The notes: generated from the sequence alone by a model not told the origin. Shown: positions 3,904-58,368, numbered from the stretch's first letter. The stretch is 64,000 bases of DNA from Fimbriimonadaceae bacterium (GCA_020850355.1 JADZEX010000091.1:35755-99754); one strand, 5' to 3'. Numbers and translations are program-made.

Positions 3904-4014
3904 GTTTCACGTGAAACAGGCCGGGCCGACCATCACGGCGCGAGGCGGTTTCACGTGAAACAGGCCGGACCAGCCGCCACGGCGCGACGGCCGGGGTGGT
4001 GTTTCACGTGAAAC
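3904..4014. repeat. array of 3 palindromic repeats (core GTTTCACGTGAAAC) at 3904, 3948, 4001
   Basis: Seen in sequence; spacing 44 and 53 bp; first two units share extended similarity (..AGGCCGGnCC..CACGGCGCGA..). Confidence 0.9.
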
Positions 4015-8435: not shown

Positions 8436-8544
8436 CTGTTTCACGTGAAACAGCGCTGCACTGGCCCCGCCTGCCCACCTGCTGTTTCACGTGAAACAGC
8501 TCCCGACGGAGCGCGCCACCGACGGTCTGTTTCACGTGAAACAG
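8436..8544. repeat. array of 3 palindromic repeats CTGTTTCACGTGAAACAG at 8436, 8482, 8527
   Basis: Seen in sequence; periodicity 45-46 bp; positions confirmed by CFT-stop/FHVKQ artefact ORFs in the track. Confidence 0.9.
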
Positions 8545-19303: not shown

Positions 19304-19427
19304 CTGTTTCACGTGAAACTCGCGCCGGGCCCCGCCGCCCCCGCGCTGTTTCACGTGAAACAGACAGCCGCCGCGATGGCCCGCAGCGATCCAGCAGCCG
19401 GGCTGTCGCCCGTTTCACGTGAAACAG
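19304..19427. repeat. array of 3 palindromic repeats at 19304, 19346, 19412
   Basis: Seen in sequence between the NERD gene and the homocysteine methyltransferase gene. Confidence 0.9.
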
Positions 19428-19472: not shown

Positions 19473-21377
19473 ATGGCGGACTCGCGGCTGATGCAGGCCC
19501 TGACCGAGCGCGTGCTGGTGGGCGACGGCGCGATGGGGACGCAGCTCGTCGCGCGCGGCGCGGCCTGGTCCAGCACGCTGGACCAGCTCAACCTGACGCA
19601 GCCGGACCTGGTGCTGGCCGTCCACCGTGAGTACCGTGCCGCGGGCGCCGAAGTCTTGGAGACCAACACTTTCGGCGCCAATCGGTTGCGGTTGGAGCGG
19701 GCCGGGCTCGGCGAGCAGGTGGCAGCGATCTGCGTCGCCGGCGTGCGACTGGCTCGCGAGGCGGCGGGGAGCGACGGGTTTGTGCTCGGCAGCCTCGGGC
19801 CGGTCGGCCGCGACCTGCCGCGGGGCGAAGCGCCGCTGAGCAACGAGGATCTCGCTGGCGCCTTCCGCGAGCAGGCCGTGGCGCTGGTCGAGGCGGGCGT
19901 CGATGGGTTGGTGCTGGAGACCTTCGTCGCGATGGACGAGCTGGCGCTGGCCGTGATCGCCGCGCGTGAAGTGGCCGAGGTGCCGATCCTGGCCCAGTTC
20001 AGTATGCCCGACCGCCTCAGCGGCTCCGAGATCGACCGGGTGCTGCGGACGATGGTCAGCCTGCGCGAGGCCGGCGCGACCGTCCTCGGCGCCAACTGCG
20101 GCTTCGGCCCGCTGCATCTGGTGCAGGCCGTCGAACGCCTCTGCGGCGCCACCGACGCCCCGGTCTCGGCCTTCCCGAACGCCAGCTTCCCGCAGGTCCA
20201 GGGCGGGCGATACGTCTTCAGCGACCAGGTCGAGTACTTCGTCGCCGCTGCCGAGCGGCTGACCGCGGCCGGCGTGACGCTGCTGGGCGGCTGTTGCGGA
20301 ACCACGCCGGAGCACATCGCCGCCGTGGCGGCCCGCGTTGCCGGGCGCCCGGTGGCCGCTCGCCCGACACCCGTACTGCTGCCGCCGCCGCCCGAACCAC
20401 GGCAGCCGGTGGCGGCTCCGCCCGCGGTGCCGGCGTTGTTGGAGCCGCTTGGGCGGGAGCCGGTGGTGGTGGTGGAGCTGGACCCGCCGCGCGGTCTGGA
20501 CTACGAGAAGGTCCTCTTCGGGGCGCAGGAACTGGCGGCCGCGGGCTGCCACGCCATCAGCATCGCCGAGAACCCGTTGGCCAGCATCCGGATGAGCAGC
20601 ATCGCGCTCAGCTACCTGGTGCAGCGCGAGGTCGGCATCCCGGCGGTCTGCCACCTGACCTGCCGCGATCGCAACCTGCTGGGGCAGCAGTCGGCGCTAA
20701 TGGGAGCGAGCGCGCTGGGGGTCGACACGATCCTGGCTCTCACCGGTGACCCCATCAACCTGGCCGGCCACAACGAGGCGAAGGGCGTCTTCGACACCAA
20801 CAGCTTCGGCCTGGTGCGCATGCTCAACGACCTCAACGCCGGCCGCAACGCGCTCGGGGCGGCGCTCGAGCGGCGCACGCGCTTCACCGTGGGGGTGGCC
20901 TTCGACCCCAACGCGGCGCGGCTCGAGGCGGCCGTGCGGCGGCTCGAAAAGAAGATCGCCCTGCACTGCGACTTCGCGATGTCGCAGATGGTCTACGAGC
21001 CGACCCGGATCGCCGCGATGTACGCCGCCACGGCCCACCTGGCGTTGCCGATCTTCGTCGGTCTGATGCCGCTGGTCTCGGCCCGTAACGCGCGCTACCT
21101 GCACAACGAAGTGCCCGGGATGCGGATCCCCGACGAGCTGCAACAGCGCCTGGCCGCGGTCGACGGTGACCGGGCCGCCAGTCAGGCCGTCGGTCAGGCG
21201 ATCTGCTCCGAGCAGATCGACCTGGCGCTGGCCGCCGGGGCGCCGGGCATCTACCTGGTCACGCCGTTCGGCCGCGTCGGCCTGTTGGTCGAGCTGGTGC
21301 AGCACCTCCGGCAGCGCGTGCGCGAGGGTCTCTGGCAGCCCCGCGGCGGCTGGACTACCGCCGTGGCGCCAGCTTAG
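19473..21377 (+). CDS. bifunctional homocysteine S-methyltransferase / 5,10-methylenetetrahydrofolate reductase (YitJ-like fusion)
   Basis: Track ORF; N-terminal Hcy-binding domain ending in zinc motif GGCCGTTPEHI, C-terminal MetF-like domain. Confidence 0.85.
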   Translation: MADSRLMQALTERVLVGDGAMGTQLVARGAAWSSTLDQLNLTQPDLVLAVHREYRAAGAEVLETNTFGANRLRLERAGLGEQVAAICVAGVRLAREAAGSDGFVLGSLGPVGRDLPRGEAPLSNEDLAGAFREQAVALVEAGVDGLVLETFVAMDELALAVIAAREVAEVPILAQFSMPDRLSGSEIDRVLRTMVSLREAGATVLGANCGFGPLHLVQAVERLCGATDAPVSAFPNASFPQVQGGRYVFSDQVEYFVAAAERLTAAGVTLLGGCCGTTPEHIAAVAARVAGRPVAARPTPVLLPPPPEPRQPVAAPPAVPALLEPLGREPVVVVELDPPRGLDYEKVLFGAQELAAAGCHAISIAENPLASIRMSSIALSYLVQREVGIPAVCHLTCRDRNLLGQQSALMGASALGVDTILALTGDPINLAGHNEAKGVFDTNSFGLVRMLNDLNAGRNALGAALERRTRFTVGVAFDPNAARLEAAVRRLEKKIALHCDFAMSQMVYEPTRIAAMYAATAHLALPIFVGLMPLVSARNARYLHNEVPGMRIPDELQQRLAAVDGDRAASQAVGQAICSEQIDLALAAGAPGIYLVTPFGRVGLLVELVQHLRQRVREGLWQPRGGWTTAVAPA

Positions 21378-22612
21378 TCGAGCACCATGCCCTTCGGGAC
21401 GACAACGATGCCGGTCTCGGTGACGGTGAACCGCCGCCGGTCGTGCTCGGGGTCGACGCCGATCTGGTAGCCCTCCGGCACCCGCACATGCTTGTCGACG
21501 ATGGCGCGCCGAATCGTGGCATGGCGCCCGATGTCGACATTGCCGAAGAGGATACTGTCGGTGACTTCGCTGAAGCTGTTGACCCGCACGTGCGGCGACA
21601 GCAGCGAGCGTTGCACCCGCCCGCCCGAGACGATGCAGCCGGGCGCCAGCAGCGACTCGACCGCCATCCCGATGCGGCGCGTCTCCTCGACCGCATGGAC
21701 GGTGCGGGCCGGCGGCGCCGACCAGATGCGGGTGTGGATCGGCCAGTCCGGATCGTACAGATTGAACGGCGGGACCACCTGCAAGAGGTCCATGTTGGCG
21801 TCGAAGTAGCTGTCGAGCGTGCCGATATCGCGCCAGTAGCCGGTCTCGTTGGTCAGCGGGTCGCGGAACCGGAAGGCTTGCACCGGCATCTCACGCTGCA
21901 CCATCGTGGGGATGATGTTCTTGCCGAAGTCGTGCGCCGAGTCGGTGCGGGCGTCGTCCGACAGCATCCGCACCAGGTCGCGGGTGTTGAAAATGTAGAC
22001 GCCCATCGAGGCCAGGGCGATGTCCGGGTTACCGGGCACCGGCTTCGGGTGGGCAGGCTTCTCGTCGAACCCGATGATGCGGTCGGCCTCGTTGACGGTC
22101 ATCACCCCGAGCCGCGTGGCTTCGGCAATCGGGACCTCCATGCAGGCGATCGTCAGCGCGGCCCCCTGGTCGATGTGCGCCTGCAGCATCTGGCCGTAGT
22201 CCATGCGGTAGATGTGGTCGCCCGAGAGGATCAGCACAAACTCCGGCCGCTCCTGCTCGAGCAGGTAGATGTTCTGGAAGATCGCGTCGGCGGTGCCGCG
22301 GTACCAGTCGCCGACGACCCGCTGCTGCGGCGGGATCAGCTCGACGTACTCGCCGCGGATCAGGTTGAACAGCGGCCCCCACGCTTCGCGGACGTGGCGG
22401 TGTAGCGAGAACGAGCGGTACTGCGTCAGGACGTTGATCCGGAAAACGCCCGAGTTGAGGCAGTTGGAGAGCGTGAAGTCGATGATCCGGTAGAGCGCGC
22501 CGAAGGGCACGGCTGGCTTGGCCCGGTCGCGAGTCAGGGGGTAGAGGCGATTGCCGACTCCGCCGGCCATCAGCATCGCGACGGTCCGCTGCAACGGCGA
22601 CGAGGTGCTCAT
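21374..22612 (-). CDS. glgC: glucose-1-phosphate adenylyltransferase
   Basis: Track ORF; motifs LAGGVGNRLYPLT, LILSGDHIYRMDY; start ATG overlaps the stop of the upstream response regulator (ATGA). Confidence 0.9.
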   Translation of the reverse strand: MSTSSPLQRTVAMLMAGGVGNRLYPLTRDRAKPAVPFGALYRIIDFTLSNCLNSGVFRINVLTQYRSFSLHRHVREAWGPLFNLIRGEYVELIPPQQRVVGDWYRGTADAIFQNIYLLEQERPEFVLILSGDHIYRMDYGQMLQAHIDQGAALTIACMEVPIAEATRLGVMTVNEADRIIGFDEKPAHPKPVPGNPDIALASMGVYIFNTRDLVRMLSDDARTDSAHDFGKNIIPTMVQREMPVQAFRFRDPLTNETGYWRDIGTLDSYFDANMDLLQVVPPFNLYDPDWPIHTRIWSAPPARTVHAVEETRRIGMAVESLLAPGCIVSGGRVQRSLLSPHVRVNSFSEVTDSILFGNVDIGRHATIRRAIVDKHVRVPEGYQIGVDPEHDRRRFTVTETGIVVVPKGMVLD

Positions 22613-22974
22613 GCGGCGCCCCCACGGAGCACGTTCTGGACGGTGTCGATCAACTCGGCCGGGTCCGAGGATTTGACCACATAAGCCGCGGCCGACCAGC
22701 TCATGAAGTTGTCCTGGTAAGCCGAGTAGGCGGTGTTCAAGACCACTGGCAGCTTGTTGTCGATGTCCATCACCTCGCGCAGCAGATCGAGGCCGTCTTT
22801 GCCGGGCATGTTGATGTCCAGCACGACGACATCCGGCCGCCTCTCGCGAATCGCCTGCAGCGCCGCCTCGGCGTCGGCTGCCACCCGCACCTCGTAGCCG
22901 CGCGCGGTGAACACGTCCTCGTACAAGATGCGCTCGCTGTCGTCGTCCTCGACGATCAGGATTTCACTGGCCAT
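22609..22974 (-). CDS. single-domain response regulator (CheY-like receiver)
   Basis: ATG at 22974 (MASEILIVEDD...) with GAGGAG upstream; phospho-acceptor context VVVLDINMPGKDG; overlaps the 3' end of the kinase gene. Confidence 0.8.
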   Translation of the reverse strand: MASEILIVEDDDSERILYEDVFTARGYEVRVAADAEAALQAIRERRPDVVVLDINMPGKDGLDLLREVMDIDNKLPVVLNTAYSAYQDNFMSWSAAAYVVKSSDPAELIDTVQNVLRGGAA

Positions 22975-25900
22975 TGGTGCTCTCCTCAGCTTCGGCCGCC
23001 GACTCACCGTGCTCGGGGAGCGGCAGTTGGATGATGAACGTCGCGCCGTCGCCGGCGCGGCTCTCGGCGATCAGATTGCCGCCATGGTCGTTGACGATTT
23101 TCCGGCTCACCGCCAGGCCGAGCCCGGTGCCATCGGCCTTGTTGGTGAAGAACGGGTTGAAGATCTCCTCCAGCCGGTCGGGCGGGATTCCCGGCCCGCT
23201 GTCGCCAACGCGGATCTCGAGGCTCTTGCCATCGCGGCTCGGCCCGGTGTGGACCGTCAGTTGCCCGCCCGGCGCCATCGCCTGCACCGCGTTGCGGACT
23301 AGATTCAGGACCACCTGCTTGATCTTCCCACCGTCCACCTCCACCTGCGGGAGGTCATCGGCCAAGGTGACGCCGACCGTCGTTTGTGTATCCTCGAAGA
23401 CCGGCTGCTGCAGGCTGATCACGTCGCGCACGAGGTCATTGATCGACAACCAGGCCAGCTCCGGCTTGCCCGGCGCAGTGAAGTCGGCGACGTTGCGCAG
23501 GATCTGCTCCAGCCGCTTGACCTCCTTGACAATGATCGCCGAGCGGCTGCGCACGTAGGCCGGTTGGTCGGCACGTTCGCCCACCATCCGCGCGAACCCG
23601 CCGATGCTCACCAGCGGGTTGCGAATCTCGTGCGCCACATGCGCCGCGACCTGGCCGATGCCCGCCAGCCGCTCGGCCTGGGCCAGCTTGTTCTGCGTCC
23701 GGGTCAGCTCGTCGATCGAGGTTTCCAGCTTCTCGAAGGCCTGGGCATTGGCCAGCGCCACCCCGGCCTGGTTGGCGAAGGTCGAGAGCATCCGAATGCT
23801 GTCCCGGCTGATCGGGTCGCGGGTGAACAGGTTGTCGGCGACAATCAGCCCGAGCACCGACTCCTGCGACACCAGCGGCACCACCAGCAGCTCGGCCGCG
23901 CCGCTGAAGCGCCGCAGCTCGGCGCCCAGGGCGAGGTCTTCCTCATCGCCCTCGCGCAGCAGAATCGGGGCCCGCCAGCGGCGCAGGTGGTCATCTTCGG
24001 CGGCTACCGGCACCACCACGCGCGCTTCCTCGCGGGCGGGCCGCCGCGCGCCGCGGGTGCGGTCGTACTCGCGCAGAAACTCGCGCAGCGACTTCTTGTG
24101 GCCGAGCTGGTGCCAGATCTCACCCGCCTCGGCCGGCGAACTCGGCCCGACCCGGAGGCTCTCGACCAGCCGGTCGCGTTCACGGTCGTAGAGGAACAGG
24201 GTGGCGCGGTTGAAGCCGAAGCCCGGCCCCGCGGTGACGCAGGTCAGGATGGCCTGCAGCAGCCGCTCGCTGTCCAGCGTGCGTTGCATCTCCTCGCCGA
24301 TGTCCTGCAACATCGAGAGCTGGTAGAGCCGCTTCAGCCGCAGCGTGGCGTCGTGGAGCATCACGATCACGCTGGTCTCGTACTCCCGCACGATGCGGAG
24401 CCGCACATCGGCGTAGCGCTCGGCGCCCGCGAAGTCGAAGTAGCGCACCTCGCGCTGGTCGATCGGCCGCTGCGTCTCCTGCAGGCGGGTGACCAGCTCG
24501 AAGAACCGGCTCTCCTCCAGCAACGACGCCGGGAACACCTCGCTGGCGTGGCGGTGCATGATCTCGTTGACGCTCTGCCCAAAAAACTCGCAGTAGCGGC
24601 GGTTGACGAACTTCACGCGCAGGTCGTCGTCCAGCAGGATCAACGCTGACGGCACCGCCTCCATGATGTTGTGGCGCATCGCCTGCAGCATCTTGGTCTG
24701 CCGCAGGCTCTCGTCAGCCTCCATGCAGCGCGCCAGCAGGCCAGCCAGCGCCTCCATCGCGGCGCGGTCCAGGCGGTCAAAGCGGTTCGGCCGCTGGCTC
24801 TCGACGTCCAGCACCCCGAAGACCTGGGGCCCCAGGCGGATCGGCACGCACAGCTCGCTACGGACGTTGCGGTGAACCGGGGAGGGGTCGAAATAGTGCG
24901 GGTCCAGCAGCACGTCGTTGGCGACGTAGCTGGTCTGCGTGCGCAGCACCTCGCCGAACACGCCGACCGCCAACGGCTGCTCGAAGGACTCGCCGAGGGC
25001 GCCGCGGCGGTGCCCGGCCTGGGCCCGCAGACGGAAGACCTGGGCCTCCTCAGCGACCTCGTAGACCGCCACGTCGTAGTAGCCGAAGTCGGTCTGGATC
25101 GTGTCGACGACACTCTTCATCAACCGCTTGGCGTCCCCGATGTTGGCGATCGCCGCGGCGCCGACGCGGCTGATCAGCTCGAACTGCGCCGACCGCTTGC
25201 GCTCTTCTTCGTACCGGCGGGCGTTGTCCAGAATCACCGCGAAGTGGCTGGCCAGGTGGTCAAGCTGCAACCGGTCGGCCTCGTCGTACGCCTCCGGCCG
25301 GCGGTGCAGCAGCATCAGCGAGCCCATCGCCTCGGCGTTGTAGACCAGCGGGCTGATCAGCGCCGAGCGGAACCCGAGGTCGGCCAGTCGGATATCATCC
25401 GGGCCGGGGTTGCCGAGGGTCGTCAGGTCGCCGATGCGGAGCGAGCGGTGGGCCGCCAGCGCGCGGCCGTGGAGCGTCGCATCGCGGTCGATCAACCGCT
25501 CGCTGCCGACCACCAGCCCGGCATCGCCCAGTAGCACGCGACAGCGCAGCCGCTCGGCCTCGGCTTCGGGCAGACAGACGGTCATCGCATCCAGCGGCAG
25601 CAGGCCCTCGATCTGCGAGGCGATGGTCCGGAAGGTCTGGTCGCGGTCGATGATCCGACTGGTGGCGGCCAGGATCCGGTTCATCGTCTCCAGTTGCCGG
25701 GTCTTGCGCGCCGCTTCGCGCTCCAGGCGTTTCTTCTCACTGATGTCGCGGACCACCGCCGAAGTGCCCAGGCGCTTGCCGGTGTGCGGATCGAAGATCG
25801 CGGTGCGGGTCACCTCGACGTCGATCCGGCGGCCGTCCTTGGTCAGCCGGACGGACTCGAAGTTGCGCACGAAACCTCGTTCGTTGACCAGGCGGGTGAG

Positions 25901-26923
25901 CCGCTCGAGCTCGCCGGACTCGATCACCTCGGGCGGCATCAAGACATCGGCCGGCCGGTTGAGGATCTCGTCGGCGGTGTAACCGAAGACCTCGCGCGCG
26001 CCCTTGTTCCAGGAGCGCAGCCGGTTGTCGGTGTCGATCGTCATCACGGCTTCGGCCGTCTCGGTGACCGCGGCGCGCAGGTAGGCCGCTTCGCGCTCGG
26101 TCTCGGCCAGCGCCAGCGACTCTTGACTGGTGTCTCGCACGCTGACCTGGGCGACCTGCTGCTCCTCGTGCGGGACCATCGTGAGCTGCAGCATGACCTT
26201 GTGGATCTGCCCGTCGACGCCCTGGATCAGGACTTCGTCGAAGCGGCGCGAGCCCGCCACGGCGACCCGCCGCAGCGCTTCGCCGACCTCATCGCGCCGC
26301 GGCCCGACGACGAGGTCGGTGAACCGCGTGATGGCCAGTTGCTGCTGCGACAGGCCGGTCAGCTCGACCGCCTGGGCGTTGCAGAGCACGACGCAGCCGC
26401 TGCGCAGCTCGACCAGGTAGACCGCGTCGTAGGTGTTGTTGAGCAGGAAGCGGGTGAGCGCCTCGCTGTCGCGCAGCTTGCGCTCGTGGAAGGTGTAGTA
26501 GAACGAGTTGACGAGCACCCGGCTCTCGTCGATTTGCTCTTCGAGCAGATCGCAGACCGCGGCCCGGGGCTGGGTCTCGGGCAGTTGCTGCAGCGCGGCG
26601 CGGATCAGCAGCCGCTTGAGGATCCGCAGGCCCTTGCTGAGCAGCGCGTAGGGCACGCGCGCGTGATAGGCCTCTTCGGCGGCGATCGAAAGCTGCACCT
26701 CGGCCGCGGCGCGACCCGGACCTTCCAGGAGCTCCGGCAGCCGCGGCAGGAAGCCCATCAGGCCCTCGACCAGCCCGGCGCGGGCGACGCTGCCGAGCTC
26801 GGCCCCGAGCGTTTCGAGCGACGCGCGCCAGGTCGGTTCGAGTTGCTCCAAGACCCGGCTGACGCAGCCGGCGGCGGCCGCCCGGACCTCGTCTGTGTAG
26901 TGGCCGACACCCTCCTCGGTCAT
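22964..26923 (-). CDS. large multi-sensor (PAS/GAF) histidine kinase
   Basis: Track ORF, 1319 aa; H-box HVAHEIRNPLVSI, G-box GTGLGLAVSRKIVNDHGG; multiple PAS/GAF-like segments upstream. Confidence 0.85.
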   Translation of the reverse strand: MTEEGVGHYTDEVRAAAAGCVSRVLEQLEPTWRASLETLGAELGSVARAGLVEGLMGFLPRLPELLEGPGRAAAEVQLSIAAEEAYHARVPYALLSKGLRILKRLLIRAALQQLPETQPRAAVCDLLEEQIDESRVLVNSFYYTFHERKLRDSEALTRFLLNNTYDAVYLVELRSGCVVLCNAQAVELTGLSQQQLAITRFTDLVVGPRRDEVGEALRRVAVAGSRRFDEVLIQGVDGQIHKVMLQLTMVPHEEQQVAQVSVRDTSQESLALAETEREAAYLRAAVTETAEAVMTIDTDNRLRSWNKGAREVFGYTADEILNRPADVLMPPEVIESGELERLTRLVNERGFVRNFESVRLTKDGRRIDVEVTRTAIFDPHTGKRLGTSAVVRDISEKKRLEREAARKTRQLETMNRILAATSRIIDRDQTFRTIASQIEGLLPLDAMTVCLPEAEAERLRCRVLLGDAGLVVGSERLIDRDATLHGRALAAHRSLRIGDLTTLGNPGPDDIRLADLGFRSALISPLVYNAEAMGSLMLLHRRPEAYDEADRLQLDHLASHFAVILDNARRYEEERKRSAQFELISRVGAAAIANIGDAKRLMKSVVDTIQTDFGYYDVAVYEVAEEAQVFRLRAQAGHRRGALGESFEQPLAVGVFGEVLRTQTSYVANDVLLDPHYFDPSPVHRNVRSELCVPIRLGPQVFGVLDVESQRPNRFDRLDRAAMEALAGLLARCMEADESLRQTKMLQAMRHNIMEAVPSALILLDDDLRVKFVNRRYCEFFGQSVNEIMHRHASEVFPASLLEESRFFELVTRLQETQRPIDQREVRYFDFAGAERYADVRLRIVREYETSVIVMLHDATLRLKRLYQLSMLQDIGEEMQRTLDSERLLQAILTCVTAGPGFGFNRATLFLYDRERDRLVESLRVGPSSPAEAGEIWHQLGHKKSLREFLREYDRTRGARRPAREEARVVVPVAAEDDHLRRWRAPILLREGDEEDLALGAELRRFSGAAELLVVPLVSQESVLGLIVADNLFTRDPISRDSIRMLSTFANQAGVALANAQAFEKLETSIDELTRTQNKLAQAERLAGIGQVAAHVAHEIRNPLVSIGGFARMVGERADQPAYVRSRSAIIVKEVKRLEQILRNVADFTAPGKPELAWLSINDLVRDVISLQQPVFEDTQTTVGVTLADDLPQVEVDGGKIKQVVLNLVRNAVQAMAPGGQLTVHTGPSRDGKSLEIRVGDSGPGIPPDRLEEIFNPFFTNKADGTGLGLAVSRKIVNDHGGNLIAESRAGDGATFIIQLPLPEHGESAAEAEESTNGQ

Positions 26924-26968
26924 CGCTCGATCCTGCCGCCGCGCTTCGCCAAGGGGCGCGGCAACCCT

Positions 26969-27994
26969 TCAGCTCGCCTGGCGCAGAAAGGCCGCGGCCT
27001 CCTCGGGCGCCACCGGGTTGATGTGGAAGCCAGTGCCCCACTCGAAGCCGGCCGTGCCGGTGACTCGGGGTAGAATCTCGAGGTGCCAGCGCCAGTCGTG
27101 GGCCAGCGTGCCCCAGTAGTCCGGCCGGCCCGGCCGAGCACTGGTCGAGGGGGCGTTGAAGAGCATGTAGTTGTAGGCTGGATCGCCCAGCGCCGCGCGC
27201 ACGCGGCGTAGCACGCCGACCAGCACCGCGGCCAGGTCGGCCCGCTCGGCGTCGGTCAGCAGCGTGAAGTCATGACACTGCCGCAGGGGGTAGACCACCA
27301 GCTCGAAGGGCGACCGCGACGCGTAGGGCGCCAGCACCAGGTGATGCGCCGACTCCAGCACGACCCGGCTGCCATCGCGCCGCTCCTGGTCGATCAGGTC
27401 GGCGAAGAGGCAGCGTTCCTTGCGCCGAAAGTGCTCCCGCGCGGCCGCCAGCTTGGCCTTCGGCAGCGCCGGGATGATCGGTGTGGCGATCAACTGCGAG
27501 TGCGGGTGCCGCAGGGTCGCCCCGGCGGCTGCGCCGCGGTTGCGGAAGACGCAGTGGTAGCGGAGCCGCAGGTCGCGGCGCAAGTCGCGAATCCGCTCGG
27601 TGTAGGCGGTCAGTACCTTCTCGACGTGGCCGGGCGGCAGGTCGGACAGGTCGACATCATGGCGCGGCGTCTCGATGATCACCTCGTGCGCGCCGACCCC
27701 GTTCATGGCGTCGAACAGCCCGACCGCCCGCGGGTCGACCTGCCCCTCGACCTGCAGCGCCGGGAACCGGTTCGGGACCACCCGGACATCCCAGACCGGG
27801 CCATTGGCGGGGCTACCGGGTGGCCGCACGGCGAACACCTCGGCCGGGGTCTTGTCCTCGTTGCCGGCGGTGAACGGTCCGTTTGGCATCAGCGGCAGCT
27901 CGGCCTCGCCCGAGGGGGGCAGCGGGCGGTGGCCGCGCTCGGCCGCGATGATCACCCAACGGTCCAGGATCGGGTCCTTGCGCAGTTCGGGCAT
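26969..27994 (-). CDS. GalT-family (HIT-like) nucleotidyltransferase/phosphorylase; galactose-1-phosphate uridylyltransferase homologue
   Basis: ATG at 27994 (MPELRKDPILDRWVIIA) with GGAGAGG upstream; active-site motif HPHSQ. Confidence 0.75.
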   Translation of the reverse strand: MPELRKDPILDRWVIIAAERGHRPLPPSGEAELPLMPNGPFTAGNEDKTPAEVFAVRPPGSPANGPVWDVRVVPNRFPALQVEGQVDPRAVGLFDAMNGVGAHEVIIETPRHDVDLSDLPPGHVEKVLTAYTERIRDLRRDLRLRYHCVFRNRGAAAGATLRHPHSQLIATPIIPALPKAKLAAAREHFRRKERCLFADLIDQERRDGSRVVLESAHHLVLAPYASRSPFELVVYPLRQCHDFTLLTDAERADLAAVLVGVLRRVRAALGDPAYNYMLFNAPSTSARPGRPDYWGTLAHDWRWHLEILPRVTGTAGFEWGTGFHINPVAPEEAAAFLRQAS

Positions 27995-28011
27995 CGCACC
28001 TCTCCGGCCAG

Positions 28012-30177
28012 CTAGACCAACCAGTTCCGCAAGTCGTCGTCGGCCGCGGGCAGGGCCACCCGGTAGGTTCCGCGCCCCGGCCAGCGGTCGGCCAGCTCGG
28101 CGGCCTGGCCCAGCGCCACGCTCAACTCGAAGTGACCAGCAACCGCGGGCACCGCCGCCAGGGGGATGGCCAGCTCGACGAACCGGTCGACGGCGACCAG
28201 CGCGGTGCCCCCGCGACTCAGCGCGACATGCCGCGGCAGGGCGCGCTGCGTCGGGCTCGGCAGCCGCAGCTCCAGCTCCGTGGGGCCGGCAGTCAGTTGC
28301 AGCAGCAGACTCCAGGTCCCCGACGGAAGGCCTCGGGCGAGGTCGATCGCCAGGTAGAGGTGGGTGCTGTCGAAGCCGTAGCGCACCGCCTCGATGCTGG
28401 CGCCTTCGGCCTGCCGGCTCATCGCCCCGGCCGGCCCGCGACCCTCCAACCGCCCGGCCGCCCGCCACTCGTAGAACCAGGTCTCACGGCCGTCGACCTG
28501 GGGAGTCAGCGGCCCGACCGGCGGGGTCAACGGCGTGCTCGCGGCCAGCCCGGCGATCGGCTCGGCCAGGGCACCTGGCGCCGCCCGGCCGAGCAGCTCC
28601 CAGACCCGGGTCAGGTGATCCCGGAAGAGCGCGTCGAAGGCCGCGTCGTCAGCGCTGGAGTGGTCGTCGCCGTACCAACAGAACCAGTCGCTCCCCTCGG
28701 CAATCGAGAGGTGCTCCCAAGCCTGCTCGAGCACTTCCGGCGGCAGGCCGTCGGCGGCCTCAACCAGCGCGGCGCGAGTCAGGTGGAGCAGCTCCCAGGC
28801 GCGCTGGTCTTCGCGGTGGCCGGCCCAGATGTAGAAGTCGTGGTTGATCCAGGAGCCCGGGAAGACCCACTCCAGGGCCGGCGGTTGCGGCGCCCGGGCG
28901 AGATGCTCGCTGAAGGTCAGCGGTTCCAACCAGGGATGCGCTTCGAGCTCCTGGTAGAGCCGGCGCAGGAAGTCGTAGCCGTTGCGGGGGTAGTACTCCC
29001 AGCAGTTCTCGCCGTCCAGGATCACCGCCACCACCGGGCGCTCCAACGCGCCCGCCTGTCCGGCGGTTCGCTCCAACAGCCGAATCAGATCGGCGACGGC
29101 GTCCTCGGGTCGCCACGAGGCGTAGTCGAAGCCGATCTTGTCGCTGGCGCGGTGATGGCGGAAGAACAGGTTGAGGCCCTCGAACTGCCACGGCTGCAGG
29201 AAGTCGACGGCCTCGGGACGGCGTCCGGGCCGCCCACTGGGGTCGCCCTGCCGCAGCAGGCTGTGGCTCAGAATCTGCTCGTCGGTGGCCGCCCAGCGGA
29301 AGCCGGCGGCGGCGGCAAGCTGCAGCGCGCGCGTCGAGACCGAGCCCTCCGACGGCCAGAGACCCGCCGGCGCGAAGCCGAGCAACTGCTCGCAGAGCTG
29401 CCGGCCGCGCTGCAGTTGCCGCGCGGCGTCGTCCGGCAGATCGACCACGCCGGGCGGCATCGCCACGCCCGGCATCGCCGTCTGCACGTCCGGGTAGTGG
29501 CACAGTAGCGGCAGAATCGGATGGTAGTAAGGCGTCGTCGAGAGCTCGACGTGGCCGGCCTGGGCCGCCGCCACATAGCGCGGGATCACCTCGCCGACTG
29601 CCGCGTCGAGAGTGGCGTGCAGCGCCTGCTGATCGGCCTCACTGTAGCCGCGGCCCTGGGCCACCAGGCTGGCCACCAGTGGATCACGGGAGCGCAGGTG
29701 GTGCCCGCACCAGGCCAACTGAAACCAGACCTGCAGATCGCGCCAGTCCTGCGTCGTGAAGCGCTGAATCGTCTCGTCGACGACCGCCGGCAGGAGGTGG
29801 CGGCCACGCAGCTCCAGCAGCTCGGCGTAGCGCGGCACCGGCTCGATCATCTGGGGCCAGTGGCACTTGAAGCCGTTCTCCAGCAGCCAGCGGCAGTCGT
29901 CGGCGCTGAGGTCGTCGGCCGGGATGGCGGTGATCCGGCGGGCGGCGTCGGTGGTCGTGCCAGCGGCGTAGCGCTGCACCTGGTCCAGCAGCGAGGGCAC
30001 CAGGTTGAAGGTCAGGTGGCAGCCGGGAAACTCGGCGGCCACGGCGATCATGTCGAGGTAGTCTTTGAGGGCGTGGAGGCGGGTCCAGGGCAGCACCATC
30101 TCCCCGCTGCGCGGGTCGCCATACCAGGGCTGGTGCATGTGCCAGAGGAACGTGACTGAGGTTGGCCGGCCGCTCAT
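28012..30177 (-). CDS. glycoside hydrolase family 57 protein (alpha-glucan-active; branching enzyme, amylase or glucanotransferase)
   Basis: ATG at 30177; GH57 N-terminal signature FLWHMHQPWY. Confidence 0.8.
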   Translation of the reverse strand: MSGRPTSVTFLWHMHQPWYGDPRSGEMVLPWTRLHALKDYLDMIAVAAEFPGCHLTFNLVPSLLDQVQRYAAGTTTDAARRITAIPADDLSADDCRWLLENGFKCHWPQMIEPVPRYAELLELRGRHLLPAVVDETIQRFTTQDWRDLQVWFQLAWCGHHLRSRDPLVASLVAQGRGYSEADQQALHATLDAAVGEVIPRYVAAAQAGHVELSTTPYYHPILPLLCHYPDVQTAMPGVAMPPGVVDLPDDAARQLQRGRQLCEQLLGFAPAGLWPSEGSVSTRALQLAAAAGFRWAATDEQILSHSLLRQGDPSGRPGRRPEAVDFLQPWQFEGLNLFFRHHRASDKIGFDYASWRPEDAVADLIRLLERTAGQAGALERPVVAVILDGENCWEYYPRNGYDFLRRLYQELEAHPWLEPLTFSEHLARAPQPPALEWVFPGSWINHDFYIWAGHREDQRAWELLHLTRAALVEAADGLPPEVLEQAWEHLSIAEGSDWFCWYGDDHSSADDAAFDALFRDHLTRVWELLGRAAPGALAEPIAGLAASTPLTPPVGPLTPQVDGRETWFYEWRAAGRLEGRGPAGAMSRQAEGASIEAVRYGFDSTHLYLAIDLARGLPSGTWSLLLQLTAGPTELELRLPSPTQRALPRHVALSRGGTALVAVDRFVELAIPLAAVPAVAGHFELSVALGQAAELADRWPGRGTYRVALPAADDDLRNWLV

Positions 30178-30308
30178 AGCCCTCAGGGCGCCGCGGCGGG
30201 CAGAACGGGCAGGCCGCGTCACCCCAGGAGCCGAGTATGCTCCCGCCGGGGCCAGGAGTCAACGTGGCAGACGCCTCCCGAACACCGGCCGCAGCAGCTT
30301 GCAGGCCG

Positions 30309-30423
30309 GTGTTTCACGTGAAACACCGGCCCCGCCGGAGCCCAGCCGGCTGCGCCCGGGCCTCCGTTTCACGTGAAACAGCGTTTGGCGCCGGGCCGGT
30401 GCGAGCTGTTTCACGTGAAACAG
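30309..30423. repeat. array of 3 palindromic repeats at 30309, 30366, 30406 (first extends to 24-bp perfect palindrome CCGGTGTTTCACGTGAAACACCGG)
   Basis: Seen in sequence between two minus-strand genes. Confidence 0.9.
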
Positions 30424-30441: not shown

Positions 30442-33400
30442 TCAGGGGCCGCTGCGCCGCAGCTTCACCGCGACATCGCCGCGAATCCTTGGCAACTCCA
30501 CCGTCGTCGCGCTGGCGGTCACGGTGACCGGCAGCCGGCTGGTCGCGACGCCCTGGGTGGTGTCCCAGAACTCGGCCTCCCAGCGGCCGTTGGTCAGACC
30601 GTCGACGCTGACCCGGCCGCCCTCGACCGCCTGCAGCGGCTCTTGCTGCATCACCTGGCGGTACCAGGTCGCGCGCCGGTCTTGGACCCACAGGAAGGCC
30701 TGCGTCGGGCCGCGCATCGCCCAGCAGCGGAGCTGCGCGGGGCTCACCGCCGGCGTCAGCGGCTGCAGCCCCAGCGTCGTCAGAGGCTCACCTGCCAGGT
30801 ACCGCGCCAGGGCCCGCAGGTGGTGGTGTTGCTCGAACTTGGTGACCAGGTACGACAGCCACTCCGTGCCGCCGCCGGCGAAGCCCTGGTGGAAGCTGGC
30901 CCAGAGCTGGTTGTGCAGATGCACCATGTTGGGACTGCGGGCGGCGAACGCCTCGGCCGACTGGCCGAGGCCGGGACCGATTTCGCAGAGTCCGCCCTCG
31001 GAACTGAAGACCGGCTTGCCGACGCCCAGCAGCGGCTCGATCTGGGCCGCGGTCAGCGCGGCGAGGTCGGTGCCGAGGCCGTCGGGGATGTCGCGCGAGG
31101 GAACGTACCAGCCACCGAGATCGACGAGGTCGCTGCCGCGCCCTTGCCACGCGCCGCCCTCGCCGATGATGGTCGGGTGCTCGTAGACGTCGGCCTGCCG
31201 GAAGGTCGCGACCAGCTCGCTGATCCAGCCCGCCAGTAGCGGCTCGGGCTGGCGGAACGAGACCTCGTCGCCGTAGCCGTAGTAGAGGAGTTGCGGGCTG
31301 GCGGCGTAGCGTGCGGCGATCAGCTCCACCAGGTTGCGGCACATCGCCCGCGCCCGGCCGTTGGTATAGACGCTGTCGGGTGTCTCGCACGGTCCCCCGG
31401 CGCCGCGGTAGAAGGCCTTGTCCTCGAACGGCCCGCGGCGCAGCTCGTCGTCAAAGACCTGCAAGTAGATGCCGTGCCGTGTCGCGCTGTCCAGTATCTG
31501 GTCCAGGCGGTGCAGCGCGAACTGCGAGTAGACGTCGGGCCAGGTCCGCAGCTCGCCCCACTGGAAGGTCGGCAGGAAGGCGTAGTTCTGCTGGAACGAA
31601 GCCTGCAGGGCAAACTGCGCGTCGATCGCCGCGAGGCTCTGCGGCAGCCAGCCGGAGACTCCCAGGATGAAGAACGGCTGGCCGTTGTCGTGCTCCAGGT
31701 AGCGCGGGTCGCGCCGGCTGACGCGCACGAAGCCGGGGCTCTCGGAGGCCGTGCAGGTGAACTGCCGCTCTCCGGACCGGACCAGCCCCTGGCCGTCGTC
31801 GAGGGCGACCTGCCAGCGGTAGAGCCCGGTCTCGCGCGGCGTGTAGCGGATCTGCCAGGCCGCCCCGGCCTGCGGTTCGAGGGCGCCGGACGGCTGCAAC
31901 GTCGTGAAGTCCTGGCGGAAGAAGCCGGCCACGCGGTCGATGCGACCCGCCGGTGTGGTGAACCAGGCGGTCAGACTGACGTCGTCCGAGTCGTACGGGT
32001 TGGCGTAGTCGGCCTGCAGATCGACCTCAATGGCCAGCGGCTGGTAACGCGGCACGCTGCCGGCGGCCAGGCCGTGGCAGTCGTCGCTGGCGTAGCGGGT
32101 CAGGTCGTAGCTGCGAACGCGGATCCAACTGACGCTGTCCGCGATGTTGCGGACGCTGATGCGGTGCCGGCCCGCGCTCACCGGCACGGCGAAGCGTTGG
32201 TTGTAGGTACAGGTATCGATGTTCCAGCGGTCGTCGTGGCGCGAGCCGGGCTGTCCGGCCGCGGGCAGCTCGAAGACCGTCGGCTGGTCGTCGACCTGAA
32301 TCTGCAGCCGCGCGTCGACGCCGATCTGCTCGACGAACACCCCGAACTCGCCAGCGGCGGCGTAGTCGACCAGAAAGATCGGCGGCGGGCCGTGTTGCTG
32401 GCGCGCCTGCCCATGCAGATGCGTCCCGAGCTGCCGCAGATCGGGCGGCGTGGCGGCGGTCAAGTCAAACTCGGCCGGGTCCTGGTCCGACCGTTGGAAC
32501 GGCCCGCGCGGCAGCAGCGTGACGTCGAACGGCCCGCCGGCCGCGAAGCGCGGTCGGATCCGCCGGAGCTGTGGCCGGGGTGAGCGCTGCGCGAACGGCG
32601 CCACCGCCGCGATCTCAAGCGGCCGCGCGCCAGCGTTGACCGCGCTCGGCAGGGCGTCGGCCGGCAGGACCACGACCGGCGAGTGGCGATTCAACAGGTG
32701 TCGCGGCAACGGCAGAGCGGCCAGTTCGGCGGCGCTGAAGGCAGTCTGGTCACCGCGCGCCAGCAGCCGCAGGCTGAAGCCCTTGGCCGCCAGCCAGGCA
32801 TCGTTGTGCCAACCCAGCAGCAGCCCGTAGCGGCCCGCCGGAGCGGGCTGCGGCAGCACCGCGAACCCGCGCTGGGCGTCGACCGGCAGGCCGGCGGTGA
32901 GCAGCGTCGGGGCCTGCCAGATCCCGCCCCAGGCCGGCCCCCAGACCCGCACGGTCAGCAGGTTCGGCGCGCCGTACTGCAGGTGGTCGGTGAGGTTCAG
33001 GCGACCGACCCCGGCGCTGCCGCCGGCCACGGCGCAGGCGCCCTCCTCGGCGGCGTTCCAGGTGGTCCGGACCAGCGCGCCGTTGACCCAGATCCAGCCG
33101 TACTGCTCGATCCGCCCGAGGTGCAGCTCGATCTGCCGGCCCCGCCAGGTCTCCGGGATGGTCAGCCAGCGGCGGTACCAGACGAAGCCGGCGTGGTTGG
33201 TGAGACCCTGCGAGGCCCAGCTCCCGACCAGTTGACCCGGTCGCCAGTCGTCGTCGGTGATCCCGGCGGTGTGCCAACCGGACTCTTCCCCGGTGGCCTG
33301 CGGATCGGCCCGCAGCCGCCAGCCCGGGCCCGCCAGGTCGACCACTCCCGCGGCGGGGTCAATCGTCAGCGCCGCGCCGGGCGGCTGGGCTGCCGGCAGC

Positions 33401-33957
33401 TCCAGCAGGGCAGGCGTCGCCCCCACGGCGGCGTCGCAGCGGGCCGGGCCGGGCGTCACCCAGAACCCATCGAGCAGGGCCTGATGCCGCCAGATCCGCA
33501 ACGTCGGCCGCAACTCCAAGACGTGCGCGCCGGCGGCCAGGGCCCCGAGCGGTGTCCTGACGAGACCCCAGCGGGGATCGCCCTGGTGCTCCAGCTCCTG
33601 GGTCGGCAACAGCACGATCGGCTGCCAGGGACCGCCGTCGAGGCGCACGTGCCAGACCTTCAGCAGCCGGCCCAGCTTGAAGTACGGTGCGTAGGGACTC
33701 GCCGCGTAGCGCAGCAGCAGCGTCGCCGCGGCGAACGGCGTGGGCAGCTCCAGACGGCAGACCAGCGGGTCGAGCCCCGCCCCGCCGAGCGAGACGGCGC
33801 GGTCGCCGGAGGCCGCGGCCGCCGGCAGCACCTGCGCGCCTGCGGCCGGCGCCTGAGGGTCCCACAGCGCTTCGGCCTCCACCCAGCGCGAGGCGGGCGC
33901 CGCGAGCGTGGGACCGAGCAAACTCAGACCGAGCAGCAACAGCGCCAGGCGGGACAT
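30442..33957 (-). CDS. large secreted multidomain glycoside hydrolase (GH2-type sugar-binding jelly-roll plus TIM-barrel GH5-like region)
   Basis: ATG at 33957 with GGGAG upstream; signal peptide MSRLALLLLGLSLLG; beta-galactosidase-like segment FVWYRRWLTIPETWRGRQIELHLGRIEQYGWIWVNG. Confidence 0.55.
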   Translation of the reverse strand: MSRLALLLLGLSLLGPTLAAPASRWVEAEALWDPQAPAAGAQVLPAAAASGDRAVSLGGAGLDPLVCRLELPTPFAAATLLLRYAASPYAPYFKLGRLLKVWHVRLDGGPWQPIVLLPTQELEHQGDPRWGLVRTPLGALAAGAHVLELRPTLRIWRHQALLDGFWVTPGPARCDAAVGATPALLELPAAQPPGAALTIDPAAGVVDLAGPGWRLRADPQATGEESGWHTAGITDDDWRPGQLVGSWASQGLTNHAGFVWYRRWLTIPETWRGRQIELHLGRIEQYGWIWVNGALVRTTWNAAEEGACAVAGGSAGVGRLNLTDHLQYGAPNLLTVRVWGPAWGGIWQAPTLLTAGLPVDAQRGFAVLPQPAPAGRYGLLLGWHNDAWLAAKGFSLRLLARGDQTAFSAAELAALPLPRHLLNRHSPVVVLPADALPSAVNAGARPLEIAAVAPFAQRSPRPQLRRIRPRFAAGGPFDVTLLPRGPFQRSDQDPAEFDLTAATPPDLRQLGTHLHGQARQQHGPPPIFLVDYAAAGEFGVFVEQIGVDARLQIQVDDQPTVFELPAAGQPGSRHDDRWNIDTCTYNQRFAVPVSAGRHRISVRNIADSVSWIRVRSYDLTRYASDDCHGLAAGSVPRYQPLAIEVDLQADYANPYDSDDVSLTAWFTTPAGRIDRVAGFFRQDFTTLQPSGALEPQAGAAWQIRYTPRETGLYRWQVALDDGQGLVRSGERQFTCTASESPGFVRVSRRDPRYLEHDNGQPFFILGVSGWLPQSLAAIDAQFALQASFQQNYAFLPTFQWGELRTWPDVYSQFALHRLDQILDSATRHGIYLQVFDDELRRGPFEDKAFYRGAGGPCETPDSVYTNGRARAMCRNLVELIAARYAASPQLLYYGYGDEVSFRQPEPLLAGWISELVATFRQADVYEHPTIIGEGGAWQGRGSDLVDLGGWYVPSRDIPDGLGTDLAALTAAQIEPLLGVGKPVFSSEGGLCEIGPGLGQSAEAFAARSPNMVHLHNQLWASFHQGFAGGGTEWLSYLVTKFEQHHHLRALARYLAGEPLTTLGLQPLTPAVSPAQLRCWAMRGPTQAFLWVQDRRATWYRQVMQQEPLQAVEGGRVSVDGLTNGRWEAEFWDTTQGVATSRLPVTVTASATTVELPRIRGDVAVKLRRSGP

Positions 33958-34064
33958 CGGGGCAACTCCCAGATTCGGTGGCGCGGCCATTCGCCCGCCG
34001 CGGCCCGCACTCCTGCGGCAGGAACCCGGCCAGCGGTGCCGCAATCCGTCGCACGGAGATCGCC

Positions 34065-36473: not shown

Positions 36474-36552
36474 GTCGGGCCTTTGCGGGTTTGTTAGGAG
36501 TGGTGCAGGTAGCGTACTTCCCAGCCGGGCAGTCGGCTGGGAGGTACGGGCG

Positions 36553-43834: not shown

Positions 43835-43850
43835 GTTTCACGTGAAACAG
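43835..43850. repeat. single palindromic repeat GTTTCACGTGAAACAG between convergent genes
   Basis: Seen in sequence. Confidence 0.9.
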
Positions 43851-45827: not shown

Positions 45828-45944
45828 GTGTTTCACGTGAAACAGCGGTCCGCGTGGTCGGCCGGCTCGCGATGCTGCGGGGTGTTTCACGTGAAACAGT
45901 GCGCCCCACGCCGGCCGCGGTGCCGCGTGTTTCACGTGAAACAG
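45828..45944. repeat. array of 3 palindromic repeats GTGTTTCACGTGAAACAG at 45828, 45882, 45927
   Basis: Seen in sequence in divergent intergenic region. Confidence 0.9.
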
Positions 45945-58232: not shown

Positions 58233-58368
58233 CTGTTTCACGTGAAACAGCACCAGACCCCGGCCGCCAAGGTGGCGCTGCCGCGGCGGCGGGGCCAATC
58301 CGGTGAACCCCGGCGCTCCGGGCGCCGTGTTTCACGTGAAACAGCGCGAGGTGTTTCACGTGAAACAG
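58233..58368. repeat. array of 3 palindromic repeats at 58233, 58327, 58351 (last two only 24 bp apart)
   Basis: Seen in sequence between convergent genes. Confidence 0.9.

Follow-up and report, generated by a model that had tools for sequence, protein, structure and literature searches.

A stretch of 64 kb of DNA (70% G+C) from a Fimbriimonadaceae bacterium (GCA_020850355.1, JADZEX010000091.1:35755-99754), referred to here as the window, carries five consecutive genes on its minus strand. On a modest balance of the evidence, these appear to form one transcription unit for the turnover of intracellular alpha-glucan (glycogen) with its own cytoplasmic two-component switch, which would act post-translationally and be centered on ADP-glucose. 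In order of transcription, the genes encode an alpha-glucan enzyme of glycoside hydrolase family 57 (GH57; 28012-30177), a GalT-like nucleotidyltransferase of the HIT family (26969-27994), a cytoplasmic sensor histidine kinase (22964-26923), a single-domain (receiver-only) response regulator (22609-22974) and the glucose-1-phosphate adenylyltransferase GlgC (21374-22612). The genes are tightly coupled, the catalytic and phospho-acceptor residues of their products are intact, and the block of kinase, regulator and either GlgC or GalT-like gene recurs across phyla. A sequence-only reading of the window had named the five genes and described overlaps between the kinase, regulator and glgC genes, including an ATGA coupling. 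All five open reading frames are found at these coordinates with the identities it gave, and direct reading of the sequence confirms the overlaps.

The spacings from GH57 through the GalT-like gene, the kinase and the regulator to glgC are 17, 45, -11 and -4 nt, as read from the sequence. The tetranucleotide ATGA at 22612-22609 combines the TGA stop of the regulator with the ATG of glgC. The regulator ATG lies 11 nt within the 3' end of the kinase gene, and GAGGAG stands just before it. Alternative GTG starts are possible for the regulator at 23007 and for GH57 at 30222. Within the cluster, no terminator-like site was found on the coding (minus) strand. A candidate start of the transcription unit is a promoter-like site, TTGACT-17-CATACT, upstream of GH57 (30234-30262, minus strand), for which a consensus scan gives weak evidence. 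The five genes are predicted to share a single transcript. In a relative (L081) whose GalT-like protein is 68% identical, the five-gene order and the ATGA-type overlap are the same. A chance juxtaposition is dismissed because this relative keeps the identical order and because sub-blocks of the cluster recur across phyla. GlgA, GlgB or a GH57 branching enzyme, GlgP and phosphoglucomutase (PGM) are not encoded elsewhere in the window.

Two samples describe the distribution of the kinase-regulator block. The first consists of 80 genome loci from many phyla, fetched by alignment to the GalT-like family and viewed with up to 10 kb of context. A kinase and a small regulator recur there beside GlgC or beside an 836-amino-acid fusion of NTP-transferase and PGM. 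The carriers include Geobacter and its relatives, Zipacnadia, Terriglobia, Aquificota, Omnitrophota, Sumerlaeota and Auribacterota. As a start from the GalT-like gene would bias the context, sampling was also carried out from the regulator. Four regulator homologues (46-56% identity) were compared, and three lie in blocks of GAF-kinase, regulator and GlgC that have no GalT-like gene and that adjoin PFK and glycogen phosphorylase or PGM. A scan of metagenomes with regulator patterns alone gave 80 loci, 72 of them signature-bearing and 66 evaluable, with at least 200 nt downstream. The gene after the regulator is GlgC in 39 of the evaluable loci, GalT-like in 13 and GH57 in 1, and 56 of the 72 signature-bearing loci hold an alpha-glucan gene. 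One frequent layout is GlgC-kinase-regulator-GalT-like with a convergent GlgA. Across lineages, the regulator directly precedes either the maker of ADP-glucose, GlgC, or its proposed remover, the GalT-like protein. The suggestion of the sequence-only reading, that a receiver-only regulator provides signal-dependent control of ADP-glucose, is supported by the cross-phylum block of kinase, regulator and GlgC and by these next genes, and such control would remain a prediction from gene arrangement. The same reading placed the cluster 'under' the kinase; control of all five genes, which that word implies, goes further than the evidence does.

The 836-amino-acid fusion is a feature of Geobacter-type clusters, where it replaces GlgC after the regulator. 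It joins an NTP-transferase and left-handed beta-helix to a complete phosphoglucomutase and is about 24% identical to GlgC (loci L001, L009-L011, L015, L020, L021, L023, L024 and L028; e.g. L028:4968-7478).

The regulator comprises 121 amino acids from the ATG, and Response_reg is its sole Pfam domain. Its phospho-acceptor set is intact (E9/D10, D53, T81, Y98 and K101, by alignment to CheY). Relative to the CheY reference, the subfamily is marked by a two-residue deletion in alpha4 and by the motif [AS][YF]xx[YF]xxx[FY]xxWxAxx[YF]xxK. The signature of the window protein, AYSAYQDNFMSWSAAAYVVK (22672-22731), lies in the beta4-alpha4-beta5 region and has the consensus AYSxYxxxFxxWxAxxYxxK. In a six-frame regular-expression scan, 20 of the 80 GalT-like loci, the window and 6 further loci each show the signature exactly once. 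The regulators of this set are followed by GlgC in 13 cases and by the NTP-transferase/PGM fusion in 10. Nitrospirota regulators directly upstream of a GalT-like gene (L046, L051 and L069) lack the subfamily signature and were excluded. A search for fusions of the receiver with an enzyme, made with the subfamily profile against 1.84 billion representatives, returned multi-receiver proteins with additive domain scores for all of the top 150.

Receiver-only output by direct protein binding has precedents. A single-domain regulator of Myxococcus is reported to bind directly to the phosphoglycosyl transferase that initiates exopolysaccharide synthesis, and thereby to activate it (PMC12802240). As in that case and in the CheY-FliM pair, the window regulator is a receiver only; it has intact acceptor residues and is encoded, in a polysaccharide pathway, beside its presumed target. 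By analogy, the presumed target would differ from these in being a cytoplasmic nucleotide-sugar enzyme of storage-glucan metabolism.

In the PDB, the regulator matches best to Thermotoga maritima TrrA (3A0R_B), the partner of the kinase ThkA in structure 3A0R. TrrA carries the subfamily signature, as AYSHYRSDMSSWAADEYVVKS. In the form AYSxYxxx(F/Y/M)xxWxAxxYxxK, the signature reads AYSAYQDNFMSWSAAAYVVK in the window and AYSHYRSDMSSWAADEYVVK in TrrA. Thermosulfuriphilus has a cluster of GH57, GalT-like gene, a gene of unknown identity, kinase and regulator, in which the regulator, at the end, is 54% identical to TrrA. Linkage of the TrrA-like family to glycogen genes is usual, not universal. 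The gene order Mut7-C, ThkA, TrrA and isoleucyl-tRNA synthetase is conserved in Thermotoga and Kosmotoga (L089:5729-11132 and L090:5333-11140). No function of ThkA-TrrA is described in the literature found, and papers naming both proteins appear, from the portions available, to cite them as structures only.

The kinase, of 1319 amino acids, begins with about 160 residues that have no Pfam match, followed by PAS, PAS, GAF, GAF, PAS, GAF, HisKA and HATPase_c in a segment-wise Pfam comparison. The kinase boxes (H, N, G1, F and G2) are HEIRNPL at 1098, NLVRNA at 1207, DSGPGI at 1241, FNPFFT at 1255 and GTGLGL at 1265. Cluster kinases have a family-specific GAF domain directly before HisKA-HATPase, marked by LTxxTAG..G.NRA, GP..EA..IW and PL..G..ADN; in the window protein these marks include LTCVTAGPGFGFNRA at 893 and GLIVADN at 1025. 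The kinase core has ThkA as its second-best match, with residues 189-410 of ThkA aligned to the family GAF. The two architectures are related but not identical. ThkA has a PAS domain between GAF and DHp (GAF-PAS-DHp-CA), whereas GAF stands directly before HisKA in the window kinase and in most cluster-linked kinases. A crude hydropathy screen finds no clear membrane-spanning segment in the kinases (maxima 1.29-1.90, a few borderline). The maximum for the window kinase (Kyte-Doolittle, 19-residue mean) is 1.69 and falls within the last GAF domain. The kinase had been called a giant PAS/GAF kinase. Its length of 1319 amino acids stands, but the giant size is lineage-specific, and only the last GAF and the kinase core are conserved. 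Its two extra GAF and three extra PAS domains are common only to close relatives; the kinases of L081 and L083 have 1305 and 845 amino acids, and other aligned kinases 457-805.

GlgC (412 amino acids) exceeds the curated cutoffs of NF001947 (566.8 bits; cutoff 470) and TIGR02091 (472.8 bits; cutoff 424.9). R32, Y114, D142, K195 and D276 of Escherichia coli GlgC, which we take to be its catalytic and substrate-binding residues, are all kept in an alignment. The position of E. coli Lys39, presumably the site for the activator fructose-1,6-bisphosphate, is Asp in GlgC of the window, L081, L064 and L026, and it is variable (Gln, Tyr, Arg or Lys) in other regulator-linked GlgCs. The window protein also differs from that of E. 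coli at positions 336, 386, 419 and 423, assumed here to be regulatory in E. coli. The window GlgC thus lacks the Lys39 feature, which is particular to the enterobacterial allosteric class and is not a defining mark of GlgC proteins in general. Allosteric control of the window enzyme may differ from the E. coli type. GlgCs linked to the kinase and regulator group together in a neighbor-joining tree, with two nested exceptions.

The GalT-like protein (341 amino acids, with N and C domains of GalP_UDP_transf) is a probable bacterial orthologue of the plant ADP-glucose phosphorylase, judged from its sequence, predicted fold and gene context. Its best PDB match is this plant enzyme, At5g18200 of Arabidopsis, with an end-to-end alignment that includes the N-terminal PELRKDP (E 6e-60). 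The matches to GalT of Pyrobaculum aerophilum (PaGalT) and of E. coli (EcGalT) have E values of 5e-42 and 6e-23. NCBIfam galT models miss their cutoffs on the protein (NF008724, 131 against 448 bits; TIGR00209, 95 against 102). The catalytic HPHSQ is at residues 163-167, with the nucleophile His165 present, and GFEWGTG is at residue 316. At5g18200 (PDB 1Z84, 1ZWJ and 2H39) has in common with the window protein the two-lobed HIT fold, HxHSQ with a nucleophilic second His, PELRKDP and GFExGTGxYINP. The window protein differs in being bacterial, in its location in a glycogen operon and in the absence of CxxC motifs and of one second-site His.

An AlphaFold2 model of the protein from 63 relatives has a pLDDT of 91.3 and a pTM of 0.91. 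The six top Foldseek matches of the model in the PDB are all chains of At5g18200, including the ADP-glucose complex 2H39, with TM-scores of 0.88-0.92 (normalized to the target) and root-mean-square deviations of 2.7-3.8 Å. E. coli and human GalT give TM-scores of about 0.81. The loop that supplies the hexose contacts in GalT reads GFEWGTGFHINP in the window protein, GFEIGTGCYINP in At5g18200, GAELGASLFTLD in PaGalT and VGYEMLAETQ in EcGalT. The motif GFE(W/I)GTGxYINP is common to the GalT-like protein and At5g18200, and is not found in PaGalT or EcGalT. A phylogeny of the GalT-like protein against GalT and ADP-glucose phosphorylase had been suggested as a check. A small neighbor-joining tree places the bacterial family and At5g18200 in one clade, with PaGalT and EcGalT outside. 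The suggestion that the GalT homologue acts on ADP-glucose is in keeping with the best match, the fold, the hexose loop and the glycogen-gene context, and this activity may be regarded as a supported prediction.

The genomic context of the family points to alpha-glucan metabolism. One or more alpha-glucan genes lie within 10 kb in 56 of the 80 GalT-like loci, and half of the 24 loci without such a gene are less than 12 kb long. Partners are an amylopullulanase-type GH57 (37 loci), the GT5 glycogen synthase GlgA (31), the NTP-transferase/PGM fusion (17), GlgC (14), a GH57 4-alpha-glucanotransferase (13) and a GH57 branching enzyme (7). With E. coli GalK and GalM as queries, galK and galM are found in none of 87 non-E. 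coli loci and not in the window; a galE-like gene is found in one of the 87. Because of these partner genes and the missing galK and galM, the family is assigned to alpha-glucan metabolism and not to the Leloir pathway. The family is very large, with at least 8000 relatives at E 1e-10, most of them named GalT or DUF4931.

Other arrangements of GalT-like genes are seen in this sample. Two tandem paralogues, 40-46% identical to the window protein, lie directly upstream of the genes for GAPDH and phosphoglycerate kinase in Omnitrophota and Planctomycetota, outside glycogen clusters (L042, L044, L053, L056, L061, L063, L068, L072, L079 and L080; e.g. L044:10001-12011). They could possibly represent a heterodimer or a second specificity. 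A DUF4912 protein is encoded 3' of the GalT-like gene in L004, L005, L007 and L012, directly so in three of the four (e.g. L004:11093-12091). These are clusters of the Margulisiibacteriota/WOR-1 type with three GH57 genes, of the amylopullulanase, 4-alpha-glucanotransferase and branching-enzyme types.

The GH57 protein comprises 721 amino acids (PF03065, E 6.5e-55). Its closest solved relative is the amylopullulanase of Aquifex aeolicus, AaApu (9JLQ/8ZYI; E 2e-83). Matching to the conserved regions of AaApu (PMC12106739) locates four of the five GH57 regions: HMHQP at 13, WPSE(277)GS, D(388)GENCW and AEGSDW at 493. Glu277 and Asp388 correspond to the catalytic dyad of AaApu, with Glu as nucleophile and Asp as acid/base. 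The two proteins have these regions and the dyad in common, and that of the window extends about 200 residues further at its C-terminus. No signal peptide is evident on reading the N-terminal sequence, and the substrate should therefore be an intracellular glucan. An activity on glycogen would be consistent with these features.

The proposed mechanism centers on the ADP-glucose pool. GlgC converts ATP and glucose-1-phosphate to ADP-glucose. The GalT-like protein would pass through an adenylyl-enzyme at His165 and transfer AMP to phosphate (ADP-glucose + Pi <-> ADP + glucose-1-phosphate), a phosphorolysis that would drain or buffer the pool with one phosphoanhydride bond kept. GH57 would act on the polymer as an endo/debranching enzyme of the amylopullulanase type. 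The soluble kinase would read an intracellular cue via the family GAF next to the DHp helix and, in the window protein, also via the five extra PAS/GAF modules. It would autophosphorylate at His1098 and then phosphorylate Asp53 of the regulator. Because the regulator has no output domain, carries the subfamily beta4-alpha4-beta5 surface and is translationally coupled to GlgC, it most likely binds one of the enzymes at the ADP-glucose node; GlgC is the first candidate and the GalT-like protein the second. Such binding would determine post-translationally how far glycogen is synthesized or mobilized. The signal of the kinase and the binding partner of the regulator are elements that we infer.

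A more specific version, put forward tentatively and with doubt, is that the phosphorylated TrrA-like receiver is a direct reciprocal protein switch between GlgC for synthesis and a HIT-family ADP-glucose phosphorylase for drain. A known enzyme with a comparable role is AspP (NudF) of E. coli, an ADP-sugar pyrophosphatase of the Nudix fold that converts ADP-glucose to AMP and glucose-1-phosphate and wastes a bond. The role proposed for the GalT-like protein, removal of ADP-glucose that restrains glycogen synthesis, is equal to that of AspP; the folds are unrelated, and phosphorolysis would conserve one bond.

Several observations weigh against the proposed scheme, some of them directed at the regulator and others at the GalT-like protein. 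The ThkA-TrrA pair of Thermotoga and Kosmotoga, which is homologous to the cluster pair, adjoins ileS and no glycogen gene. The fourth regulator homologue mentioned above, from Brocadiia, is an orphan. Among the 66 evaluable metagenome loci, 13 have no recognised alpha-glucan gene downstream of the regulator, the next gene being unrecognised or absent. Because of the ileS context, the orphan and these 13 loci, the partner of the regulator need not be encoded by a neighbor and need not be GlgC. The Thermotogota context and the 13 loci also favor the main rival explanation, in which kinase and regulator act on gene expression and the receiver is a phosphorelay intermediate or phosphate sink, on a route to a DNA-binding regulator encoded elsewhere in the genome. 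Some receiver-only proteins do work in phosphorelays; Spo0F is one, and it is among the better PDB matches of the window regulator. Against this explanation, the regulator keeps its place right before GlgC or the GalT-like gene across phyla, often with codons that overlap, while the remaining cluster shuffles. The conserved subfamily signature occupies beta4-alpha4-beta5, the face through which receivers usually bind their partners. Neither a histidine phosphotransfer (HPt) protein nor a second regulator was noticed among the recurrent families and Pfam-annotated genes of the examined loci, although no search was aimed at them. Control of gene expression is, on this evidence, rather unlikely.

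With respect to the GalT-like protein, identity to At5g18200 is 36.6% and to PaGalT 35.7%. PaGalT (6K5Z) is a true UDP enzyme according to the depositors of the structure and a preprint. As a UDP enzyme is nearly as identical as the plant protein, the nucleotide, ADP or UDP, is not readable from sequence, and ADP-glucose specificity of the bacterial proteins would have to be taken as a presumption. The position of Asp78 in EcGalT, which is Leu in At5g18200 and Arg or Lys in the bacterial family and PaGalT, gives no adenine or uracil assignment. The neighbor-joining trees of the GalT-like and GlgC proteins are without support values. The GalT-like protein also lacks both CxxC metal motifs. CPFC is replaced by GPFT and CIFC by CLFA, and HWH is replaced by RWH (residues 39-42, 195-198 and 302); the losses are found also in its nearest relatives (P0003 and, in part, P0007). 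The lowest confidence of the AlphaFold2 model, a pLDDT of 55, is around the first lost motif, at residues 21-30. The first CxxC motif is likewise absent from PaGalT. The zinc site of E. coli GalT is required for activity, a point that bears on a protein without these motifs.

Co-occurrence of the two enzymes raises a further difficulty. The equilibrium of the plant enzyme At5g18200 reportedly favors ADP and glucose-1-phosphate, with a Keq of about 5 to 40 (a value attributed to McCoy and colleagues, 2006). If this equilibrium holds, co-expression of GlgC and the phosphorylase would, with neither of them held off, run a futile cycle (ATP + Pi -> ADP + PPi). On the same premise, a switch at the ADP-glucose node would make physiological sense, because unregulated co-expression would spend ATP.

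The near-equal identity of PaGalT also favors a second rival, in which the GalT-like protein functions in alpha-glucan metabolism with another substrate pair. This could be phosphorolysis of UDP- or GDP-glucose, nucleotidyl exchange between ADP-glucose and another sugar-1-phosphate (e.g. maltose-1-phosphate), or the reverse reaction, synthesis of ADP-glucose. In the Geobacter-type clusters GlgC is replaced by the NTP-transferase/PGM fusion, whose nucleotide specificity is unassigned, and the tandem paralogues beside gap-pgk suggest diversified specificities. Against these points, the closest relative by sequence and structure, with a clear margin, is the ADP-glucose enzyme At5g18200; the hexose-binding loop is in common with that enzyme and not with PaGalT or EcGalT; and the frequent partners GlgC and GT5 GlgA use ADP-glucose. 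Another substrate pair is quite unlikely.

That the protein is an ordinary Leloir galactose-1-phosphate uridylyltransferase in an incidental position, as database names and the sub-cutoff matches to both galT models might imply, is most improbable given the distance of EcGalT relative to At5g18200 and the alpha-glucan context of loci that have no galK or galM. The class I GalT enzymes (EcGalT and PaGalT) have the superfamily, fold and HxHxQ in common with the GalT-like protein, which differs from them in scores below the galT cutoffs, in its hexose loop, in the absence of CxxC and in a context of alpha-glucan and not of galactose.

The cluster is bordered by genes of other kinds. A gene for a fused homocysteine S-methyltransferase/methylenetetrahydrofolate reductase (19473-21377, plus strand) converges on glgC with a 4-nt overlap, TTAG, that holds both stop codons. 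Because of this overlap there is no room for a terminator between the two genes. Upstream of the cluster, at 30442-39363, are large genes with DUF5060, DUF4962/heparinase II/III-like and double FGE-sulfatase (sulfatase-modifying-factor-like) domains, which suggests a neighboring region for the breakdown of sulfated or acidic polysaccharides.

A perfect palindrome, GTTTCACGTGAAAC (usually TGTTTCACGTGAAACA), is present in 19 copies in the window against 0.03 expected. The sites are at 3904-4014, 8438-8542, 19306-19425, 30311-30421, 43835-43848, 45830-45942 and 58235-58366. The palindromes nearly always form triplets, 24-94 bp apart (mostly about 45-65), with unconserved spacers, and are intergenic just after the 3' ends of genes. 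One triplet is situated between the preceding gene and the promoter-like site of GH57, which is just downstream of it. The palindrome is absent from 87 of 88 related loci compared, including L081, which has the identical operon. A role of TGTTTCACGTGAAACA, found three times upstream of GH57, as a cluster-specific operator was rejected in view of the 19 copies in the window and its absence from L081. The palindrome looks like a genome-specific repeat of the repetitive extragenic palindromic (REP) type or a binding-site array.

In textbook accounts, bacterial glycogen synthesis is controlled at GlgC by small-molecule allostery and by global transcriptional and post-transcriptional regulators. 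In 300,000 of its 445,374 characters, a 2024 survey of prokaryotic alpha-glucan enzymes in Chemical Reviews has no mention of a two-component system, response regulator, histidine kinase or GalT. No description of the kinase-regulator-GlgC block or of a bacterial ADP-glucose phosphorylase was found in full-text literature, a scope outside which most subscription journals lie, and a prior description is possible. Receiver-only two-component output and nucleotidyltransferases of the HIT family are of known kinds. What appears to be new is their combination in the glycogen pathway and its unusually broad phyletic spread.

With a cytoplasmic kinase of its own and a regulator that lacks an output domain beside GlgC or the GalT-like gene, the textbook pathway would gain a signaling layer and an extra enzyme. 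The lineages concerned include Armatimonadota, Geobacter relatives, Terriglobia (Acidobacteriota), Omnitrophota, Aquificota, Sumerlaeota, Auribacterota and Thermodesulfobacteriota, and the scope is much wider than one operon. If the proposal is true, the common GalT/DUF4931 annotation would be corrected for thousands of misnamed bacterial 'GalT' genes. The ThkA/TrrA family, a structural model system that is functionally an orphan, would acquire a physiological role. Glycogen control in bacteria would then include a further, post-translational layer that is widespread and as yet undescribed.

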